From: Escherichia phage MirsaeidiM_Esher7
Length of the DNA stretch: 40,430 nt
Reading direction: 5' to 3' (one strand)
Sequence record: PQ593108.1
Each line of letters starts with the position of its first letter. Positions within the stretch are counted from its first letter, which is position 1. The notes below the pieces were generated by a model that saw only the letters and a program-made list of their open reading frames with translations, made no database searches and had not been told where the DNA came from. Shown here piece by piece: positions 1-40,430 of the stretch. The position numbers and the translations under genes are program-made.

Positions 1-55
1 GGTCTTCAATGGGCGTATTCCCACTCCGTCTTATAGTCCTCTTCAGAGAACGAAC
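1..55. repeat. terminal direct repeat copy, identical to 40376-40430
   Basis: First 55 bp are identical to the last 55 bp of the window; T7-family genomes have direct terminal repeats. The true repeat may be longer than what is represented here. Confidence 0.8.
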
Positions 56-109
56 CGTAAGACTCTTCGTCCATACTACCTCCTTTCGTTGATTGTTACC
101 ATTACGGCG

Positions 110-268
110 TTAATGACACTCAGACACCAGAGAACATATGAGAGTCTCGACCCACCCGACCCACTGACTTCCAGCAGTAACGCCAGCAGCAAGTAGAACA
201 GCAGCAAGAAACCTGTATGTAGCTCGATTGGTCGCCAGAGCTTTAAGTACAGCTTTGGTCTTTGCCAT
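110..268 (-). CDS. gene 19.5-like small protein (52 aa)
   Basis: ATG at 268 preceded by GGAGG; product MAKTKAVLKALATNRATYRFLAAVLLAAG... resembles my recollection of T7 gp19.5 (TYRFL motif, hydrophobic); sits downstream of the phiOR-like promoter as in T7. Confidence 0.5.
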   Translation of the reverse strand: MAKTKAVLKALATNRATYRFLAAVLLAAGVTAGSQWVGWVETLICSLVSECH

Positions 269-416
269 ATGCTACATACCTCCTGTATCTATGGTCTGTG
301 ACTATCTGTATTGGAGGTGATAATAATCATAATCACTCCTGACTATATGGAGACCTAGAGTCCTTACCTATATGCTAACTTTTAGTCGGCATACTATAAG
401 GTCCCCCTAGGTCCCC

Positions 417-439
417 CATCCCTATAGTGATAGTTAAGT
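417..439 (-). promoter_or_regulatory. phage RNAP promoter (phiOR-like, right-end promoter)
   Basis: Plus-strand motif ccctatagtgatagttaagtt, one of 11 copies of the conserved 23-bp promoter; position after the terminase/HNH genes matches T7 phiOR. Confidence 0.7.
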
Positions 440-452
440 TAACCTATTGAAT

Positions 453-995
453 TTACTTGTGGTTTCTATGAGACCTATCTCGCTTAGGGGACCGTAGGTT
501 TACTGCGTACTTCTTGTGCTTCTCTGTTCGTAAGGCGTCCAGCCAAGCCTCTAGTTCCTCTATGGAGTCCGAGGTCTTCGTGAAGCATTTACCTTTAACC
601 CGGAGCTGAGCACGATACTTGCCCGTTGGCTTGAAGAAGCTGATTCCTTTGGGCAGACCGTTAGTCTCCCCGCCTTCTGAGTTCCAGCGGTTCTCCAGCT
701 CAGTCACAAGCCTATAGTTCTCAGGCCTATCGTCAAGTCTATCACCATTAATATGGTCTACCAACATTCCATTAGGTATTCGACCTACAGCTAGACTATA
801 TATGATTCTTGAGCGTCTATATCTGCTTCCCAGCACCTTCACTATAGCATACCCGGATGGATGCACAGAGAAGCCCATTGGTTCACCCGGAATCTTCTTC
901 GAGCTACCGAAAGGCTTCTTGCACACCAAGTTTCCGTCAACATATGCGTAGTGGTTAAAGAGGGCCACCCTGTCGATGGCCTTCTGTTTACTCAT
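453..995 (-). CDS. HNH endonuclease with C-terminal AP2-like DNA-binding domain (putative homing endonuclease)
   Basis: 180 aa; HNH motif region VDHINGDRLDDRPENYRLVT; C-terminal GISFFKPTGKYRAQLRVKGK...SIEELEAWLD resembles an AP2 domain; ATG with AGGAGGAG RBS; T7 has no such gene here. Confidence 0.8.
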   Translation of the reverse strand: MSKQKAIDRVALFNHYAYVDGNLVCKKPFGSSKKIPGEPMGFSVHPSGYAIVKVLGSRYRRSRIIYSLAVGRIPNGMLVDHINGDRLDDRPENYRLVTELENRWNSEGGETNGLPKGISFFKPTGKYRAQLRVKGKCFTKTSDSIEELEAWLDALRTEKHKKYAVNLRSPKRDRSHRNHK

Positions 996-1008
996 AGTTC
1001 TCCTCCTA

Positions 1009-2772
1009 TTAATGGAACGTAACGTATGACCCTAGCCCCAGCTCGTCGTCCGTATCGTGAGTCACCCGGACCCCATTGTCCCAGAACTCAGTGTGGATGG
1101 ACTCGAAGCCTTTCCGTGGGTTATCCATCTGTTCTTCCAGCCACTCCTCAGTGACTTCACGTTCGCCTTTGTTGGCATCCTTAGCCATAGACTCAACGAA
1201 GAACTGTACACCGATAGCCAGCGCATCAAGTCGGTCATCGTGTGCCAAGGCTCCACGTTCACGAGAGATACGTGTCATCTGGTAGAAGAGAGAGTAGATA
1301 GGGTTACGAACACCATCCTTATCAGAGGCCGACTGGTAATCTTGGACGATAGCAGCAGCGTTGACGATAAGTCGGTGAGACCCCATGATAGGCTCCAGAA
1401 CGTCACAGATGCGGAGTTCCTTCTGACCCTTACTCTTCACTTCAGTTACAGCAGCAGGATGAATACGGGCAGCTACAGGCTTGAATAGCTCAAGGTACAT
1501 ACCATCACCGAAGTTACCCTCAATGACGTATTCGTTGACCTTCCACTTACGACCAATCTTAGCCAGAGCTTCCAGAGTAGAGTCTTCATAACCACCACGC
1601 ATACCACCAACTTCCATAGCGAAGATGTAGCCGTTGAGCTGATACAGTACCGCATAGCCAGTTTCATCCTTACCACGACCACTAGGGTCAATGACCAGAA
1701 TCTTCTGGGTGTACGAACTGAAGGCAGAACCTACAGTCTGATACGTGTGGTATGAGTCACCCATGAGTCCAACGTTAGGAACGTCCTCACGCTTGTTCTG
1801 AGGGTTAGGAAGCCATTGGTAGACCATTGGGCTGGACGCTGGGTCCAAGTCGGCTACGATAAGGTCACGGAGCTTCAGAGGGTACTTCTCAGCATCACTC
1901 AGGTTAGGGTTAAGCATGAACTGTAGAGCGAAGCCAGCTTTACCATAGGATAGCTCACGTTCCTTCAGGTCCGTATCATCGAATCGTACCTCATCGGTCG
2001 GACGCCAGTAGAAGGACTCAGGGTCCTCTTCAAGCTCTGCCTGAAGCATAGGAGCCAGACGGTCACCGTAAGACTGCCAATCCTTCCTGTCGCGTGGATA
2101 ACGAGCAGGCCAGATAGTAGTGGTATATCCACGACCTTCAAGCTCACGATACAGGGTCATCTCGTTCTGAGGAGTGCCCAGATAGATGATTGTACCTCCC
2201 GGCTTCAGGATAGCGTCAAACTCTTTCACAAGCTCTGACAGACGGTCTCGTGCAGCCTGAGTCGCTGAGTTGTTCGGAACCTCCACGTCATCGGCAATCA
2301 GGATGTCAGCACGACTACCAGTCAACTGACCAGTGATACCAACGGACTTAACCGAAGGTGAGTGGTCTGGCTTGGCTGGCCCAACGTCGAAGCTGATAAC
2401 CGCATCTCGCTGACCCTGCTTAGGTTTGAGTTCCCGAAGCTGAGGCATGAGGTCGATGATTCGCTTGATGAAGATGGAGTTAGCATCGGCTCGTTCCTTT
2501 GAGGCCGACACAATCATGAACTTCAAGTCTGGGTTGTTCCATAGCTTCCAGACAACGAAGGCACACGTAATGAAGGACTTCCCGATACCACGGAACGCTT
2601 GTAGGATGAAGCGCCTGTTGTCCCCAGCCGATAGTTTCTTCGCCATGTCAATCTGACAGCGAGTCGGTACTGGTAGTGACAGAGCTTTCCACAGGACGAA
2701 CAGGAAGAACACGAAGTCTGCCTTCATACGGGCAGTCATGAGCGCCGGACGCGCCACTAAATCTTTACTCAA
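1009..2772 (-). CDS. terminase large subunit (T7 gp19-like)
   Basis: 587 aa, collinear with T7 gp19 ([14 protein letters not shown], Walker A-like [23 protein letters not shown]). The codon at the T7-homologous start is TTG (2772-2770), preceded by AAGGAGG and overlapping the Rz stop; first in-frame ATG is at codon 12. Confidence 0.93.
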
Positions 2773-3218
2773 TGCGTCACCTCCTTATCTTGCTGCAAGG
2801 CTCTCACAGTGTCCTGAAGGGCCTTAATCCACTTGTCCCCTTTCAGTCCGATGGCGATAAGACGTTTAGCATCTCGTTCGTCAAGTTCGGCGAAATCATC
2901 AATGACGCATCGACCGTCACTTTGCGTGGTTCCACTCGTTGGTTTGACTCGGATGCGCAACCGCTTATTGTCAGACTGAAGGTCAGCAATAATCCTATCA
3001 GTGCTGCCTTCCAGCGAGGACATTTCGTCCTGAAACCGTTTGGACACTTTGTTGACTTCAGCTTGGACAGCAAGCCTTGTATCTTCCGATGCCTTAAGAT
3101 TCGAGGTGTATTCTTCATTGACCTTAGCCTCCCACTTATTGTTAGCGGTGTGGTATCCACCAGCAAACATCACTGCTGCAAGTAACCACGGAGCCGCTCT
3201 CTTTAAAAATTCGAGCAT
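2769..3218 (-). CDS. Rz-like i-spanin (T7 gp18.5-like)
   Basis: 149 aa, N-terminal TM segment ([21 protein letters not shown]), close match to recalled T7 gp18.5; position after small terminase. Confidence 0.9.
2843..3118 (-). CDS. Rz1-like o-spanin lipoprotein embedded in Rz (+1 frame)
   Basis: ORF wholly inside Rz in another frame with lipobox LTISGC after a hydrophobic stretch ([12 protein letters not shown]). Start uncertain: the ORF extends to 3166; I chose the internal ATG at 3118. Confidence 0.55.
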   Translation of the reverse strand: MKNTPRILRHRKIQGLLSKLKSTKCPNGFRTKCPRWKAALIGLLLTFSLTISGCASESNQRVEPRKVTVDASLMISPNLTNEMLNVLSPSD

Positions 3219-3272
3219 AGTTGCCCTCCCGGTTTATCAGATTTCACGTAGAGTCTCCTCCACTAGTTAGTG

Positions 3273-3319
3273 TTAACCATAAAGGCCACTACATATAGTA
3301 ATGACCTTGAGTCTAACAC
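3273..3319 (-). promoter_or_regulatory. conserved imperfect hairpin, candidate RNase III processing site (R18.5 position)
   Basis: Element cataaaggccac...atgaccttgagtct immediately after the gene 18 stop; the minus-strand RNA folds into a stem of about 11 bp with G-U pairs; two more copies at 26811 and 34074. Confidence 0.4.
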
Positions 3320-34442: not shown

Positions 34443-37124
34443 TTAAGCGAATGCAAAGTCTGAAGACAGAATGTCTTCGATATTCAGTTTACCTTTCTTC
34501 GGAAGCTCAGGCAACTTGTCGCGCTGGCTCTCATGAAGCTGGTATTCAAACTGCTCGTAGAAGTCATGCAGCACATCGTTGTCGCGGTAGGTCTCGACCA
34601 TCGTCTCACGGACACCACGGAACAGATATTCAGCGTCAGCCGGGATGGTCCCGAAGCTATCATGAATCACTGCGAATGACATCACGCCATACTTGCGATG
34701 CGTGTGGACTACAGTCTTGCGTAGGTGACTACCATCTTGTGAGTGGACGAAGTTCGGGCTAATGCCTGACTCCTGCTTGTGCTTGTCCAGCTCTTTCTTC
34801 GTGCCTTTGTTGACGGTAGGCTGAAGGTTGAATGACCCTAAGAACATCAGGTTCAAACGTGTGGTATCCTTCTTGCGGTATTCCTGCCAGACCGGGAAAC
34901 CATCAGGTGTTACCCAGTGTACCGGAAGGCAAGGCTTCAGGATTTCACCAGTCTTCTTGTCCTTCACTTCAGCAGCCAGCAGCTTGGCAGCACCCTGAAG
35001 CCACTTCATCGCGTCAACCGCAGCAACTACGGTCACGCTCACAGCTTCCCAAATCATATTAGCCATGAAGCGAGCCGCTTGGCTTGGCTCGGTGAACATA
35101 GCGCCAGACCCTGAGTCAATCGCTGGCATCACGATGTCCTCATAAACTTGGTCTGCGAAGCCGTACTCTTTCGACCCGTATGCCAGAGTCATGACTGAAC
35201 GCTTAGTGACCTTGCGTGACATACCGTATGTCAGCCACTGACGGGCCAGCTCTCGTGTCCCCAGCTTGATACGTTCGGTAATCTCACCAGTTTTCTTATC
35301 CTCGTGAGTGACCATCTCGTTGTCAGTACCGGTAATCAGCAGGACTTTAAGCTCTTCCTCAATGCGGTCAGACACGATGCGGTAGATGTCTTGGACCTCA
35401 CCGGAAGGCGTCAGGTTTACTGCATGTCCACCGATGTGATCACGAAGCATCGCGCTAAAGTGCTGAATCCCTGAGCATGACCCATCGAACGCTATCGGCA
35501 GTGAGCAGGAGTAAGACAATCCGTGGTGCATTACACCAGCATACTCGAAGCAGAACGCAAGGAAGCAGAACGGAGAGTCTAACTTACCCCACCACTCAAT
35601 GCTGTCCATCGGTGCCTTAGCAGTAGCCATGATGTTGTCGTGGTTATCTTCCACCCACTTGATGCGCTCCTCGAAGGTTACTTTATCAATACCCGCACAG
35701 TTTGCACCGTGGACCTTCAGCCATCTGAAACCGTCAGCACCAATAGGCTTACCGACTGCCAGAGTCAGGAGACCCTTCTGCATGTCGTTACCCTGAGGGT
35801 TGAACATCGGCACAGCGTAGACTCGACCGCGCCAGTCCATGTTGTATGGAAACCAGATGGCCTTGAACTGAGAGAACTTATTCGCTTGGTTGATGATAAA
35901 GCTCAGTGATAATCTGCGTGACTGTCGGGCCTTCTCGCGGCGATAGATACCAGCAGCAGCTTTCTTCCACGCCTTGAGTTCCTCTTCAGTCTCACCAGCA
36001 TAGTCCTCAGGCTTCAGCGGTTCCATCTGAGGGATGTCATCAATAGGCGTGTTGTTCAGCTTCTCGACCATGTTCACCACGTTCAATACCTTCTTGTTCA
36101 CTTTCCAAGGTGTATTTTGAATGATGTTCACAGCGTCATAGACTTCAGGCATGTACACGTCTTCATAACGTGCTACCGCAGACTTAGACCCTAAGCGAAT
36201 CAATGGTAACGGTCTGCGACCTTTGGCCCAGTACCCACCGCCTACTACACCAGTCCACGGTTTAGGTGGAACGACGCAAGGCTGATAGACTGGCGCAATA
36301 CCAGCAAGGCTGAATCCACGTTGTGCCATCTTCTTTACCCAGAAGTCTGACAGGTGGACCATCTCAACGTCAGCCGCCGCATTGCCAGCACCATAACGCT
36401 TAAGCTCTACCAGTTGTGTGGACTGGATGACAATCTCGAGCATCTTGATGCCAACGTGTACCGCTTCGGTAGGACTCCAAGTCCCCCACGCATCTTCCAG
36501 TTGGCCTTGCTCCAGCATGGATGCCTCTACAGCTTGCATGTAGGCTTTCTTGTAGGATGCCCCAGCTCGCTTGTTCAAGTTCTCAGCTATCGCCTTCTTG
36601 AAGTGCTCCTTCTCCTTGTCACGGATGCGACCGAAGCGGATTTCGTCCTCAAGTGTGCGACCTAACGCTGAGGCCATAGGTGTAATCGGTATCCCTTCAG
36701 GCTTGACCAGCTTGGAGAGTATGACCTTCAGTATGATAACCGCAGCGGACTCACAGGAGATGCGAAGAGAGCGGTCCTTGACGGCCTTCTCTTCAGTGCT
36801 CAACGTGGTGAACGCTACGCTAGGACGAGAGGTTGACAGCTTCCCGTCTGGACCTTCGTGCCACTCCTTGACGGCTTGCGCAATCTTAGGAACCAGAGTC
36901 TGCATCAAAGGCTTGGCGACCTGATTGTCTGCCAGTTCCCCTCGCTCAGTCTGTCGCTCAAGGTTCTTGATGAAACGTCGCTCGCCTTCAGTGTATGCCT
37001 CATGCTCAAGCTGAAGCTGCTTGACTGCAAGGTCTTGCCCGTAGTGGTCGGCAAGCAGGTTAAACGGCTCAATTGCGTTCGACACATCAGTGAAGTCGTG
37101 TTTGTCAATAGAGATGACGCTCAT
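34443..37124 (-). CDS. DNA-directed RNA polymerase, single-subunit (T7 gp1-like)
   Basis: 893 aa; near-collinear with recalled T7 RNAP (FNLLADHYG, PVYQPCVVPPKPWTG, IWFPYNMDWRGRVYA, DGSCSGIQHFSAML, VHSQDGSHLR, terminal DILSSDFAFA). Confidence 0.98.
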   Translation of the reverse strand: MSVISIDKHDFTDVSNAIEPFNLLADHYGQDLAVKQLQLEHEAYTEGERRFIKNLERQTERGELADNQVAKPLMQTLVPKIAQAVKEWHEGPDGKLSTSRPSVAFTTLSTEEKAVKDRSLRISCESAAVIILKVILSKLVKPEGIPITPMASALGRTLEDEIRFGRIRDKEKEHFKKAIAENLNKRAGASYKKAYMQAVEASMLEQGQLEDAWGTWSPTEAVHVGIKMLEIVIQSTQLVELKRYGAGNAAADVEMVHLSDFWVKKMAQRGFSLAGIAPVYQPCVVPPKPWTGVVGGGYWAKGRRPLPLIRLGSKSAVARYEDVYMPEVYDAVNIIQNTPWKVNKKVLNVVNMVEKLNNTPIDDIPQMEPLKPEDYAGETEEELKAWKKAAAGIYRREKARQSRRLSLSFIINQANKFSQFKAIWFPYNMDWRGRVYAVPMFNPQGNDMQKGLLTLAVGKPIGADGFRWLKVHGANCAGIDKVTFEERIKWVEDNHDNIMATAKAPMDSIEWWGKLDSPFCFLAFCFEYAGVMHHGLSYSCSLPIAFDGSCSGIQHFSAMLRDHIGGHAVNLTPSGEVQDIYRIVSDRIEEELKVLLITGTDNEMVTHEDKKTGEITERIKLGTRELARQWLTYGMSRKVTKRSVMTLAYGSKEYGFADQVYEDIVMPAIDSGSGAMFTEPSQAARFMANMIWEAVSVTVVAAVDAMKWLQGAAKLLAAEVKDKKTGEILKPCLPVHWVTPDGFPVWQEYRKKDTTRLNLMFLGSFNLQPTVNKGTKKELDKHKQESGISPNFVHSQDGSHLRKTVVHTHRKYGVMSFAVIHDSFGTIPADAEYLFRGVRETMVETYRDNDVLHDFYEQFEYQLHESQRDKLPELPKKGKLNIEDILSSDFAFA

Positions 37125-37193
37125 ACTTAAAGTCCTTGTTATTAGTCTTTCACTTAAAGTCTCTTTGGTCTTTCACTTGGAGTCTTAGACCTT

Positions 37194-37216
37194 GAGTCCT
37201 ATAGTGATAGTTAAGT
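37194..37216 (-). promoter_or_regulatory. phage RNAP promoter-like motif immediately upstream of the RNAP gene
   Basis: Plus-strand motif cctatagtgatagttaagtc with a divergent initiating region (GGACUC rather than GGGAGA); +1 is about 75 nt upstream of the RNAP ATG. Confidence 0.5.
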
Positions 37217-37221
37217 CATAA

Positions 37222-37482
37222 TTACTTGCATATCAGTGGGTTAGCGTGAAGATGACTGAAGTCACCGTGAGTCGTGTGCTTGATGGTTGACCGTTGGTCT
37301 ATCGCCTTCCAGCCTGAGACTAAAAGTTTACCATCGTCAGTGCTCGGTCGTCCACCATACGCCAGACACATCAGTTCGGACTTATGGCCCTCAGCCTCCA
37401 TGCGGCGGTGTAAGAACACGTCACGCTGTATTTGCTCTACACTGCTACGGATAGATGGTCTGTTAATGTATACGGTTTTCAT
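37222..37482 (-). CDS. hypothetical early protein
   Basis: 86 aa; ATGA overlap with the upstream nuclease gene stop. Confidence 0.5.
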   Translation of the reverse strand: MKTVYINRPSIRSSVEQIQRDVFLHRRMEAEGHKSELMCLAYGGRPSTDDGKLLVSGWKAIDQRSTIKHTTHGDFSHLHANPLICK

Positions 37483-37931
37483 TGTTGGTGTTCCCTTAAG
37501 TATTTGATTGCGTTGGATAATACCGCCTGTGAATCGTTAAACTTACCGAGGGCAAGATTACACTCCGTGCAGAGTAGACCTCGTACCTTGCCTGTTACAT
37601 GGCAGTGGTCTACCGCAAGACGCCGCTGGAGTGCGTCAGGATTTCCACATATTGCGCACACTCCTCCTTGCTCCTGAAGCATTTCTGCGTACTGAGCGGA
37701 TGTGATGCCATACCGTTTTTTTAGAGTTGAGTTAAGACACGCGTCCTTGTACGCATCTGACTTACGGTAGCGGCTTCTTAGCTCTTGCGCCATTTTCCCA
37801 GATTTATATTGAGCGATTTTCTCGTTTCGACACTTCTTGCAGTGGCCTTGGTAGCCATCTTTGTTCTTGGAGTCCTTATAGAACTCGCTCTTGGGTTTTA
37901 ATTCTCCACACTTACTACAAGTCTTACACAT
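37479..37931 (-). CDS. endonuclease VII-family (HNH-type) nuclease with N-terminal zinc-ribbon
   Basis: 150 aa; motif GGVCAICGNPDA...LAVDHCHVTGKVRGLLCTECNLALG is the Endonuclease_7 signature; N-terminal CKTCSKCG...HCKKC zinc ribbon. Confidence 0.8.
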   Translation of the reverse strand: MCKTCSKCGELKPKSEFYKDSKNKDGYQGHCKKCRNEKIAQYKSGKMAQELRSRYRKSDAYKDACLNSTLKKRYGITSAQYAEMLQEQGGVCAICGNPDALQRRLAVDHCHVTGKVRGLLCTECNLALGKFNDSQAVLSNAIKYLREHQQ

Positions 37932-38128
37932 TACAGTTTGCTCCCAAGTGTTGCTATATCCCAGACGTTCGCTAAATTGCGCACGAATCGTCCGTTAGGC
38001 TGACGTACAGTCCAGCGGCCCAGACGTACATAGTTGAATTTGTAGACTTTACGCGCCTTGTTAATGTCTCTCATCAGCACGTAGGCGATAAGTACATAGC
38101 TTATGGCTATCAATAGTGCAAGACTCAT
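37931..38128 (-). CDS. hypothetical early protein with N-terminal hydrophobic segment
   Basis: 65 aa; MSLALLIAISYVLIAYVLM then basic tail; TAATG overlap with downstream gene. Confidence 0.45.
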   Translation of the reverse strand: MSLALLIAISYVLIAYVLMRDINKARKVYKFNYVRLGRWTVRQPNGRFVRNLANVWDIATLGSKL

Positions 38129-38131
38129 AGT

Positions 38132-38299
38132 TTATCCCGCCAGTCCAATCCACATCAAGATACCGCGCACGACACCTACCGGAGAGAATATAATGTCCAC
38201 TGCCAGCCAGCCCAATCGTAATGCGTTACCATCAGTGAGCACCGCAGTAAGCCAAGATAGAATAATGGTTACGTAAAGTGCGATGATTGTAAATTTCAT
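38132..38299 (-). CDS. small hydrophobic early protein (55 aa)
   Basis: Start placed at the internal ATG (AGGAG RBS) rather than the upstream GTG at 38341; two predicted hydrophobic segments. Confidence 0.45.
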   Translation of the reverse strand: MKFTIIALYVTIILSWLTAVLTDGNALRLGWLAVDIIFSPVGVVRGILMWIGLAG

Positions 38300-38365
38300 A
38301 GTAATTCTCCTATCAATGTAAGTGGTAATCTTTGAGGCCACCTATCAGTCGTGACCTCTCGTCTA

Positions 38366-38515
38366 TCACTCAGTGTGTAAGCTGTCGTGCATACGTTTGC
38401 GGCGCTTATAGACCACCTTCAGGAGACGCATAGACTCCTCGTGGTTTAATCGCCCGGTCTTGACCATAAGCCGGGCGATGGTGACGTGGTGCTGGCAGAG
38501 ACCATAAGTTACCAT
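38366..38515 (-). CDS. small hypothetical protein (49 aa) translationally coupled to the Ocr-like gene
   Basis: ATG overlaps the Ocr-like stop (TGATG), GGAGG within the upstream coding end; basic product MVTYGLCQHHVTIARLMVKTGRLNHEESMRLLKVVYKRRKRMHDSLHTE. Below the ORF-track size cut-off; low confidence. Confidence 0.35.
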   Translation of the reverse strand: MVTYGLCQHHVTIARLMVKTGRLNHEESMRLLKVVYKRRKRMHDSLHTE

Positions 38516-39039
38516 CACTCGCAGTCCTCCTCAGCAGCCTCAGGATCGAACACTACGTTATCGTTGATGTCTTCGACCTGCATGTGAAAACCTTCCTCAT
38601 AGAGTTCTTTTGCACATGCAATAGCCTCGTAAAGTGATACAGCTGCCTCAATTATCTCGCCTGTTCTAGTGTCAACTACCCAATATTCAGCCTTTTCGTC
38701 TTCCTCTTCAGCCTTTTCGTCGCTCTCTTCAGCCTCAAACCAGACTACATCCGAGCTATTAGACACATCGTTATACAGTGCCTCATAGATGCGAGCTTGT
38801 AGTATACGCGTTACGTCCTTGGTCTCAGGCATCAGCCCAGAGTCTTCGAACTCGTGGTCTATACCATCAGCAGCCATCACCGTAAAAATCTCGTGGTAAT
38901 AGTGCGGAACCTGACCGTCTACGACCTCATGCAGCGCATCGCTGTAGTCATCGCCTTCAGCTATTTCGTCGTACTGAATACGCTCATTGAACAGCTTAAC
39001 GGTTTCAGCCAGCAGCTCATAGTATGCGTTACGTTCCAT
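38515..39039 (-). CDS. ocr: Ocr-like anti-restriction DNA-mimic protein (gp0.3) with C-terminal extension
   Basis: N-terminal 118 aa closely match recalled T7 Ocr (VPHYY..IF.VMA..GID.EFEDSGLMP.TKDV.RILQARIYE); an additional 56 acidic residues follow (174 aa total vs about 117 in T7). Confidence 0.85.
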   Translation of the reverse strand: MERNAYYELLAETVKLFNERIQYDEIAEGDDYSDALHEVVDGQVPHYYHEIFTVMAADGIDHEFEDSGLMPETKDVTRILQARIYEALYNDVSNSSDVVWFEAEESDEKAEEEDEKAEYWVVDTRTGEIIEAAVSLYEAIACAKELYEEGFHMQVEDINDNVVFDPEAAEEDCE

Positions 39040-39066
39040 AGTTATATCCTCTCAAAGTTAATATGT

Positions 39067-39120
39067 GTTAGTGACTATCAGTCAGGCCGCTATGAGTCTA
39101 ACGACCTGTAGTTAATCACT
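39067..39120 (-). promoter_or_regulatory. imperfect long hairpin E1, candidate RNase III site upstream of the Ocr-like gene
   Basis: Arms gttagtgactatcagtcagg and cctgtagttaatcact are imperfectly complementary; a second copy lies at 39384-39443. Confidence 0.4.
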
Positions 39121-39121
39121 C

Positions 39122-39376
39122 TCAGTTAGCGAAATAAGGAGCTAAGACGCCCGCTGTAGAACTCACGGTTATCTGTGAGTCTATCAGGTAGGTCTCGTTG
39201 TTTATACGCACAGTATCTACGCTGTAGTTGCTGAACGGCTTGCTTGAGACCTTACGCACTACCACACGGTGACGCGCTCCTGTCATCTCTTTAAGCTGAA
39301 TCCACGCATAACCTTTAGTGTTCACGAATACTTCATTGCGATTAGTGATTGTGCTTAAGTGTTTCATAGTGTCCAT
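39122..39376 (-). CDS. hypothetical first early protein, upstream of the Ocr-like gene
   Basis: 84 aa; ATG with AAAGGA RBS; bracketed by hairpins E1 and E2; T7 has no gene before 0.3. Confidence 0.55.
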   Translation of the reverse strand: MDTMKHLSTITNRNEVFVNTKGYAWIQLKEMTGARHRVVVRKVSSKPFSNYSVDTVRINNETYLIDSQITVSSTAGVLAPYFAN

Positions 39377-39383
39377 CCTTTAA

Positions 39384-39443
39384 GTTAGTGACTATCAGTC
39401 AGGGCCTTCAGATGTAGACTCAAAGGCCCTGTAGTTAGTCGCT
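39384..39443 (-). promoter_or_regulatory. imperfect long hairpin E2, candidate RNase III site (R0.3-like)
   Basis: Shares the 20-mer gttagtgactatcagtcagg with E1; inner stem CAGGGCC/GGCCCTG is perfectly complementary; immediately 5' of the first early gene RBS. Confidence 0.4.
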
Positions 39444-39554
39444 ATCGGCGCACATTAAGAGTTTATCCAGATTGTTAAAGAGCATTCCCTTCAGTCAGAG
39501 GACTTCAGGTAGACCATTTCAGTGTTGGTCATCACCGCGTTGTTTCGATGTGGT

Positions 39555-39590
39555 ACATATTACTTTAAGTCGTTACTGCCTGTCAACTAC
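39555..39590 (-). promoter_or_regulatory. sigma70-type early promoter candidate (T7 A3-like)
   Basis: Minus strand TTGACA, 18-nt spacer, TAATAT, followed by GTACCACAT as I recall downstream of T7 A3. Confidence 0.4.
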
Positions 39591-39695
39591 TTTCTGTCGG
39601 TTGCCTGTTGTTCGTATGTCTTACAGGCTGACTACTTAACCGGACCGGACCGGCGTCTTCACTATCCGGTTGTTGCCGTGTCGTGTTGACGGAAG

Positions 39696-39730
39696 CTATT
39701 AAGCCATAGCCTAGACCTATAGTCAATAGG
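39696..39730 (-). promoter_or_regulatory. sigma70-type early promoter candidate (T7 A1-like)
   Basis: Minus strand TTGACT, 17-nt spacer ATAGGTCTAGGCTATGG, CTTAAT; layout resembles T7 A1. Confidence 0.35.
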
Positions 39731-39837
39731 TAATTTGAAATAATATTGATTAAGCTATCGTCGGCCCCATGGTGTAAGAGGATATAGTCTTTGACTAACA
39801 TGTCTTTGACCTTAAGTCTATAGCTCTGTGTCTAGTA

Positions 39838-39941
39838 ACTGTAGGTCTATGACTGTAGGTGTTGGTGTCTTATGGTTATGAGACTGTAGGTTAGTGAGAC
39901 TGTAGGTGTAGGACTGTAGGTTAGTGAGACTGTAGGTGTAG
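39838..39941. repeat. array of ACTGTAGGT 9-mers including a perfect 30-bp tandem duplication
   Basis: Six copies of actgtaggt between 39838 and 39937; the 30-mer gactgtaggttagtgagactgtaggtgtag occurs twice in tandem (39882-39911, 39912-39941); two further copies near 40228-40251. Confidence 0.6.
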
Positions 39942-40375
39942 GACGTAATGTTATACTATAACACTATACAGATAGAGACTCAAAGAAGACCTATAGCCCC
40001 TACCTATCGTCCTTCCCTAAGCCATAGCCTAGACCTATCGTTGACCTGAAGTCTTGACCATCGGTCCAACCTTATGATAGACTGGCTGTGACTGCAAGGA
40101 GCAGTAACGGGTAGGGCCTTTGGTATGGACTTAAAGAGGGCCTATGGGGAGACTTGAGGTTCTTGAACTGTGAGATGTGGTCTCAAACTTTTGGTCCAAA
40201 ACTCATCGAAGACTGTGGTGACAGCTACTGTAGGTCAAGGACCGTAGGTCAGGCGACACTAGGATAGACCAATAAGTAGGATGACCCTAAGTGAGCTTCT
40301 CTTAAGGTGTTACCTAAAGTCCTTGACTACAGTAGCTAAGGTCAGTAGAGTAGCGTCAGCTATGAACTGACCTTA

Positions 40376-40430
40376 GGTCTTCAATGGGCGTATTCCCACT
40401 CCGTCTTATAGTCCTCTTCAGAGAACGAAC
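40376..40430. repeat. terminal direct repeat copy, identical to 1-55
   Basis: Exact 55-bp match to window start. Confidence 0.8.

Follow-up and report, generated by a model that had tools for sequence, protein, structure and literature searches.

We propose that the Kayfunavirus Ocr is a two-part early protein, in which a DNA mimic carries a tethered accessory binding domain that acts together with it, a reading to which we give a probability of roughly 0.6. The proposal comes from analysis of the window, i.e., the whole stretch of 40,430 nucleotides from Escherichia phage MirsaeidiM_Esher7 (PQ593108.1), which is a K1F-like (Kayfunavirus) phage genome in the reverse orientation, its bases 36000-40430 being 92-94% identical to K1F, PhiNW-B1 and their relatives. 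It is noted that Ocr is the textbook DNA-mimic anti-restriction protein, an inhibitor of BREX and the trigger that is sensed by PARIS, and that, to our knowledge, nearly all of the mechanistic work on Ocr has been done on the 117-residue T7 protein. In the literature covered here on Ocr in Kayfunavirus, on K1F and on Ocr homologs, with the K1F genome paper lying outside this coverage, the proteins are called simply Ocr and an extra domain is unmentioned; likewise, in the records and literature examined for the long-form Kayfunavirus Ocr the module is neither annotated nor discussed. Thus, the protein is known and annotated, while the inserted domain, its position in the tail and its presence/absence polymorphism appear to be undescribed.

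The gene lies where it would be expected in a phage of this kind. Small early ORFs precede Ocr, the gp0.4 homolog follows it and the RNA polymerase gene lies further on, in the same way as T7 gene 0.3 is placed in the early region immediately upstream of gene 0.4, and as one or two small ORFs (homologs of gp0.1 and gp0.2) stand before Ocr in K1F. The coordinates of the gene, of its parts and of its downstream neighbour are collected in Table 1. The gp0.4 homolog shows 34% identity to T7 gp0.4 (BLASTP, E 3e-5) and is 56% identical to a neighbour gene that is precomputed as PF26807 Phage_T7_GP04. It is also noted that a 150-aa ORF in the early region (37479-37931, minus strand) matches Recombination endonuclease VII (PF02945, E 2.1e-27); since K1F aligns to bases 36000-40430 in two pieces with 84% coverage, this ORF may be an inserted homing-type endonuclease with no counterpart in K1F.

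Table 1. Features of gene 0.3 and its downstream neighbour in the window.
Feature	Coordinates	Strand	Basis
Gene 0.3 (long-form Ocr), complete	38515..39039	-	ORF of 174 codons plus TGA stop at 38517-38515
Ocr DNA-mimic domain, residues 1-101	38737..39039	-	Pfam ocr; BLASTP against T7 Ocr; PDB 1S7Z
Disordered acidic linker AEESDEKAEEEDEKAE, residues 102-118	38686..38736	-	AlphaFold pLDDT; Tandem Repeats Finder
Accessory module YWVVD...VVFDP, residues 119-166	38542..38685	-	Predicted beta-beta-alpha-beta-beta fold (AlphaFold); conservation
Terminal acidic tail EAAEEDCE, residues 167-174	38518..38541	-	Codon comparison of long and short forms
gp0.4 homolog (49 aa from its ATG)	38366..38515	-	BLASTP against T7 gp0.4

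The N-terminal part of the protein is an Ocr. Residues 4-94 score 110 bits against Pfam PF08684, for which the cut-off is 25, and there are matches to PHROG 2568 ('ocr-like anti-restriction', E 4.5e-54) and to PDB 1S7Z, the solved T7 Ocr chains (E 2.3e-27), with a BLASTP identity to T7 Ocr of 54% over residues 1-92. The first-pass annotation of this DNA, which was made from the letters alone, had the first 118 residues match T7 Ocr. This stands for the N-terminal part but not for its full extent, because the clear homology covers residues 1-92 and ends near residue 92-101. Residues 93-101 (SNSSDVVWF-E) form a motif conserved in the non-T7 Ocr branch, and the alignment of residues 102-118 with the acidic tail of T7 Ocr is compositional only, being that of low-complexity acidic sequence. 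By contrast to the window Ocr, which diverges after residue 92, the 117-aa T7 protein goes on as a long helix that gives way to a short acidic tail without order, with neither the 48-residue folded domain that is inserted here nor the Cys-containing EDCE end. The full-length AlphaFold model, which was built on an alignment of 119 sequences, has Ocr-type helices as far as residue 93; comparison of this model with the PDB by Foldseek gave nothing meaningful and missed Ocr itself.

Features that characterise T7 Ocr as a DNA mimic are kept in the window protein. Residues 1-92 have a net charge of -16, a value that describes the total charge rather than its spatial pattern, and T7 Ocr is strongly acidic as well. 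F52 does not vary among the 119 long forms and L80 shows at least 90% conservation in them, and the two residues align with F54 and L82 of T7 Ocr, which form the dimer interface and are also contacted by the PARIS sensor AriA (PMC10802264). Because the dimer-interface residues are kept, the Ocr domain should dimerise and, like T7 Ocr, should block BREX and the type I restriction-modification enzymes. A small peculiarity of the window copy is its N-terminus, MERNAYY, where almost all relatives have MERNANAYY, corresponding to a two-codon deletion (39022-39039).

Next to the Ocr domain comes the linker, in which residues 105-115 have pLDDT below 50 in the full-length model. A tandem repeat with a period of 21 and 2.4 copies (38686-38735, Tandem Repeats Finder) coincides exactly with it, and the 21-bp duplication adds seven residues (DEKAEE-type) relative to K1F. 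The same duplication is present in a few metagenomic relatives, and a linker of the same extended length is found in P0001, P0005 and Mt1B1_P3 (176 aa). Among the relatives the span from residue 93 to the module ranges from 12 to 30 residues and is usually 19. The GA-rich linker appears to be prone to slippage. Separate translation of the module was considered and rejected, because there is no in-frame start codon in the linker or at the module start.

The first-pass annotation described a 56-aa acidic C-terminal extension (38518-38685), and this piece is present in the 174-aa ORF with the exact sequence given and a net charge of -14. The extra piece is real, but it does not follow a standard Ocr end: the module sits ahead of a terminal EEDCE that is also present in the short relatives, and the last codons, GCT GAG GAG GAC TGC GAG TGA TGG, are found in both the long and the short forms. 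Since both forms end in the conserved terminal motif, the comparison of their codons indicates that the module is an in-frame insertion within the acidic tail rather than an addition after it. The codons GAGGAGGA (38532-38525) are the Shine-Dalgarno sequence of the gp0.4 homolog, the ATG of which overlaps the Ocr stop (TGATG). The junction is overlapping in T7 as well, where gene 0.3 occupies 925-1278 and gene 0.4 occupies 1278-1433. This dual use of the terminal codons, for coding on the one hand and for the Shine-Dalgarno sequence and start overlap on the other, may explain why the terminal EEDCE is kept in the long and short forms. Throughout the non-T7 Ocr branch a Cys is kept in this tail, also in the forms of the Klebsiella phages (EDCDD, EGCDD), whereas T7 has no such Cys.

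One explanation of the module that was raised at the outset is that a gene which stands apart in T7 (gp0.4, 0.5 or 0.6) was fused to Ocr, and another is read-through or a sequencing artefact. The fusion is suggested by the presence in T7 of a 51-aa gene directly after 0.3 and by similar fusions that have arisen by deletion in P0109 and IMEP24 (see below). However, when the HMM of the module was run with filters off against the ORFs in all six frames of T7 bases 1-3300, no match was obtained at E up to 10, and the gene that comes next after Ocr is an intact gp0.4 homolog of its own. As for the artefact, no hidden stop or frameshift is present near codon 118, and the long ORF is the conserved state, occurring in about 70 phage records and in more than 110 protein clusters, so that a sequencing error or a private read-through as its origin is excluded. 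The conservation of the module, its dN/dS of 0.22-0.60 and its confident fold when modelled alone also speak against a chance read-through. Both ideas are refuted.

What survives of the earlier description is an extra module fused to Ocr. Modelled alone by AlphaFold, residues 117-168 reach a pLDDT of 96.8 and a pTM of 0.80, and based on this the module is predicted to be an autonomous folded domain of about 48 residues on a flexible acidic tether. In the full-length model a beta-beta-alpha-beta-beta unit is present at residues 119-165 with pLDDT of about 85-88, and the pTM of this model, 0.48, gives no placement of the module relative to Ocr. Structure searches with the module returned matches that are weak for a 52-residue query and cover their targets partially, with no BFVD match at E 0.001. 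Four small alpha/beta domains, namely ClpS, the T4 antitoxin Dmd, AcrIF9 and the C-terminal domain of L7/L12, resemble the module as a fold-level analogy with partial overlap, and they are 6-21% identical to it, with no sequence similarity.

The likeness to ClpS would allow the module to be an adaptor mimic that binds ClpA, protecting Ocr or redirecting the host proteolysis. This is very improbable, for the match extends over only some half of the ClpS core (80-85 residues) and has 12-20% identity, the Pfam ClpS profile gives no match even at E 1, and L7/L12 and many unrelated proteins score similarly. The matched part of ClpS is presumably a generic strand-helix-strand, with the part that forms the N-degron pocket having no counterpart in the module, as judged from the general structure of ClpS rather than from a residue-level alignment.

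The conservation within the module is uneven. G150, V155 and P166 are invariant, at least 90% conservation is seen at Y119, W120, D123, T126, L136, A139, H152, EDIND (156-160) and V162-D165, and the second hairpin, G-x-H-x-x-VEDINDNVVFDP, is almost invariant. The module is thus kept through 110 distinct sequences in the 119 aligned long forms, and its variation is concentrated in the first hairpin and the helix and gives two main allelic types, the K1F type, TRTGEIIEAAVSLYEAIACAKELYEEGFHMQ, with a net charge of -9 and the common type, AKTGVFIEQAVSLEVATACAKDHYAIGRHLK, with a net charge of -4. This pattern of variation fits a conserved functional site together with a variable surface.

The acidity of the module raises the possibility that it extends the DNA mimicry, with the acidic hairpin E-D-I-N-D-N-V-V-F-D perhaps binding a divalent cation and with phosphate-like charge being placed at both ends of the Ocr rod, so that enzymes contacting longer DNA would be engaged. 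The net charge of the module in the window phage, -9, and the invariant D/N-rich motif of the hairpin are in line with this, and the motif recalls the cadherin-type DxNDN calcium sites, Cadherin-17 being a weak PDB sequence match. However, the disordered tether would not keep the module aligned with the mimic, the acidity of the consensus allele is mild and the likeness of the motif is short and statistically insignificant (E 0.13), and we regard both the cation binding and the extended mimicry as quite improbable.

The module evolves faster than the domain that carries it. The pairwise dN/dS is 0.22-0.60 in the module as against 0.10-0.29 in the Ocr domain, and protein distances in the module are on average 2.1 times those in the Ocr domain. 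The distances of the two parts are only weakly correlated (Mantel r 0.15, a value reached by 24 of 999 permutations), so that the Ocr domain and the module recombine as separate cassettes.

The long form is the usual but repeatedly lost form in the K1F-like phage group. With tblastn at full length, the window protein is 91.5-93.8% identical to the Ocr of K1F (gp0.3), Mt1B1_P3 and ASO2B, the value for the latter two being 93.8%. K1F gp0.3 (169 aa; AM084414, DQ111067) has the same architecture, the identity being 91.5% for the whole protein and rising to 98% for its final 56 residues; relative to it the window copy has gained the seven residues of the linker duplication and lost two N-terminal residues. 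That protein is already annotated in public records as 'putative ocr protein', the long form having been available there ever since the sequencing of K1F, and the rarity that the earlier description implied is thus wrong. The 56-residue piece is found at full coverage in 70 phage records, each match lying under an Ocr-type gene, and among the best 120 clusters from a collection of 5.8 billion proteins nearly all are long forms of 162-179 aa. As for whether relatives have the standard Ocr length, both lengths occur, the short forms of 110-116 aa being found in roughly as many close relatives as the long form.

The short forms of close relatives have an Ocr domain up to 94% identical to that of the window, the ending VVWFE, acidic tail and EDCE, and the same junction with gene 0.4, and they have no module. 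They include phiHAO1-1 gp01 (111 aa, C-terminus ...VVWFEAEEDCER), TM1 (114 aa, ...VVWFEAEEADEEEDC), IMG/VR loci of 110-114 aa, among which eight of the same clade end in ...VVWFEAEEDCE, ...EESDEEDCE or ...EEGDE, and Klebsiella phage P293 (116 aa, ...EEEEEEDCDD); a truncated form of 122 aa also occurs among the relatives. At least four different deletion junctions are present, namely GCT GAA GAG/GAC TGC GAG, AGC GAC GAG/GAG GAC TGC GAG, GGC GAC GAG/TGA and the variants of TM1 and phiHAO1-1, with the stroke marking the junction. Short direct repeats, GCT GA(A/G) GAG and the GAC GAG type, border the module in the long forms, and it is noted that repeats of this kind promote slippage deletions. 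The short-form junctions, which differ from one another and lie between GA-rich direct repeats, are as would be expected for independent deletions. In a neighbour-joining tree of the Ocr domain the short forms are scattered among the long forms, with the most diverged long forms (overall identity of 66-70%) splitting off below the Klebsiella-phage group, in which all forms are short. We favour an old module that was lost many times over a single insertion that was spread by recombination. In a presence/absence matrix of the early genes for a small sample, no neighbour gene tracks with the module.

The frequent loss and the elevated dN/dS could equally reflect relaxed constraint on a nearly neutral passenger, i.e., a solubility or stability tag or a spacer that is kept mainly by linkage and binds nothing specific. 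The repeated loss, which came about by frameshifts and by deletions with several different junctions in phage genomes that are otherwise intact, would be expected of such a passenger, as would the module dN/dS being above that of the Ocr domain and the occurrence of the short form in T7 and in the relatives from Klebsiella phages. By contrast, the dN/dS of the module is below 1, the 18-residue second hairpin is almost invariant in 119 sequences that include the lineages 66-70% identical overall, and its conserved charged residues E156, D157, N159, D160 and D165, which are probably surface-exposed, suggest a functional site. A passenger of this kind is thus considered unlikely.

Relatives of the module outside Ocr were sought in several collections. 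The profile search of Pfam, PHROGs, NCBIfam, PADLOC and the PDB gave insignificant matches only. The module HMM obtained three matches among 1.84 billion cluster representatives, all of them spurious repeat proteins (TPR and others); the long-Ocr family itself is unlisted there, presumably because its cluster representative has no module. A word-indexed search of the 5.8 billion proteins with the module profile found two short ORFs only, the intact long forms being unlisted there as well, and these two were rejected as standalone modules because they are long-form genes broken by single-base homopolymer indels. As the intact family is missing from both lists, the two large protein searches are less than exhaustive. 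Bacterial and archaeal genomes (185,579 species), plasmids and IMG/VR gave no context for the module other than Ocr, and on the window its HMM found nothing besides the Ocr copy. In the collections searched there is thus neither a true standalone copy nor a fusion partner other than Ocr. The 61-aa gene gp02 of phiHAO1-1 (1003-1188), which overlaps the short-Ocr stop and occupies the place of the gp0.4 homolog, was considered as a relative of the module and rejected, with an hhalign probability of 1.5%.

These searches bear on an alternative in which the module is an independent effector against a host factor unrelated to the targets of Ocr, such as another defence system or a toxin, with the fusion to Ocr serving only for the earliest co-expression and for the two-fold valency of the dimer. 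The autonomous fold on a long flexible tether is in keeping with such an effector, there is a likeness of the module to small phage proteins that stand alone and to inhibitors, T4 Dmd and AcrIF9 among them, and its quick evolution, its two allelic types and its recombination independent of the Ocr domain point the same way. However, because an effector would act freely, it would be expected to occur solo somewhere, and no true standalone gene and no non-Ocr fusion was found, the short ORFs being frameshifted long forms. This alternative deserves weight, but we think it rather less probable than not by a clear measure. The module is found with Ocr only, is dispensable, evolves fast and is similar to small binding domains, and the tethered accessory binding domain is the best-supported reading.

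Based on the two-part reading, the following mechanism can be proposed. The first part (residues 1-101) is the canonical Ocr DNA mimic, which would be dimeric, and the second part (residues 119-166) is a small domain inserted in frame into the acidic C-terminal tail of Ocr and joined to the mimic by the 17-residue disordered polyacidic tether (102-118). The original tail end, EEDCE, follows the module, its codons providing the ribosome-binding site and the overlapping start of gene 0.4. In the Ocr dimer, two modules would then hang from the DNA-mimic rod. As a protein-binding accessory domain the module would add a contact to the Ocr-target complex or, alternatively, would alter which host proteins engage Ocr, including those of Ocr-sensing defences such as PARIS; an altered anti-restriction or anti-BREX specificity is possible. 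The module would be conditionally useful rather than essential, which would account for its fast evolution, its recombination as a cassette and its repeated loss. A bolder form of the proposal is that the module is a second anti-defence head, which shields Ocr from the PARIS-type AriA cages or neutralises a second host defence. We put this forward only tentatively. If it is true, the Kayfunavirus Ocr would be a natural two-headed anti-defence protein, and the presence/absence of the module and its two alleles would record an arms race with the variable defence repertoires of E. coli.

The K1F-like Kayfunavirus phages are a large group of therapeutic-candidate coliphages that carry Ocr with the extra folded domain, and the natural deletion, swapping and breakage of the module provide ready, isogenic-like comparisons of the long and short forms. 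If the module changes which defences are blocked or triggered by Ocr, it would help to explain the host-range differences among these phages and would provide a small fold that is new among inhibitors; if it has no measurable effect, it would clearly illustrate how an essential early gene can carry a domain that it does not need.

Finally, we note several variants in which the module has been rearranged or broken. IMEP24 (MZ648215.1, 562-1122) has a chimeric Ocr of 186 aa, in which the first half of the module leads, through an 'AIA' microhomology, into the C-terminal 50 residues of another early gene in place of its own second half; in Mt1B1_P3, SH3, Dev2 and others that gene, of 115 aa, stands by itself. 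In P0109 (167 aa; metagenomic, seven contigs of up to 38.9 kb) a deletion with its junction behind the helix of the module links it in frame with the C-terminal portion of the gp0.4 homolog, giving Ocr, half of the module and gp0.4 in one protein, for which PF08684 and PF26807 are precomputed. In two Logan contigs (L033, 2667-3180; L036, 1070-1569) the long-form Ocr is split by single-base homopolymer indels, with GGG becoming GGGG at the first codons of the module and AAAA becoming AAA in the first hairpin. The GGG to GGGG variant occurs in three samples of one study, and such copies are either real mutants or assembly errors.
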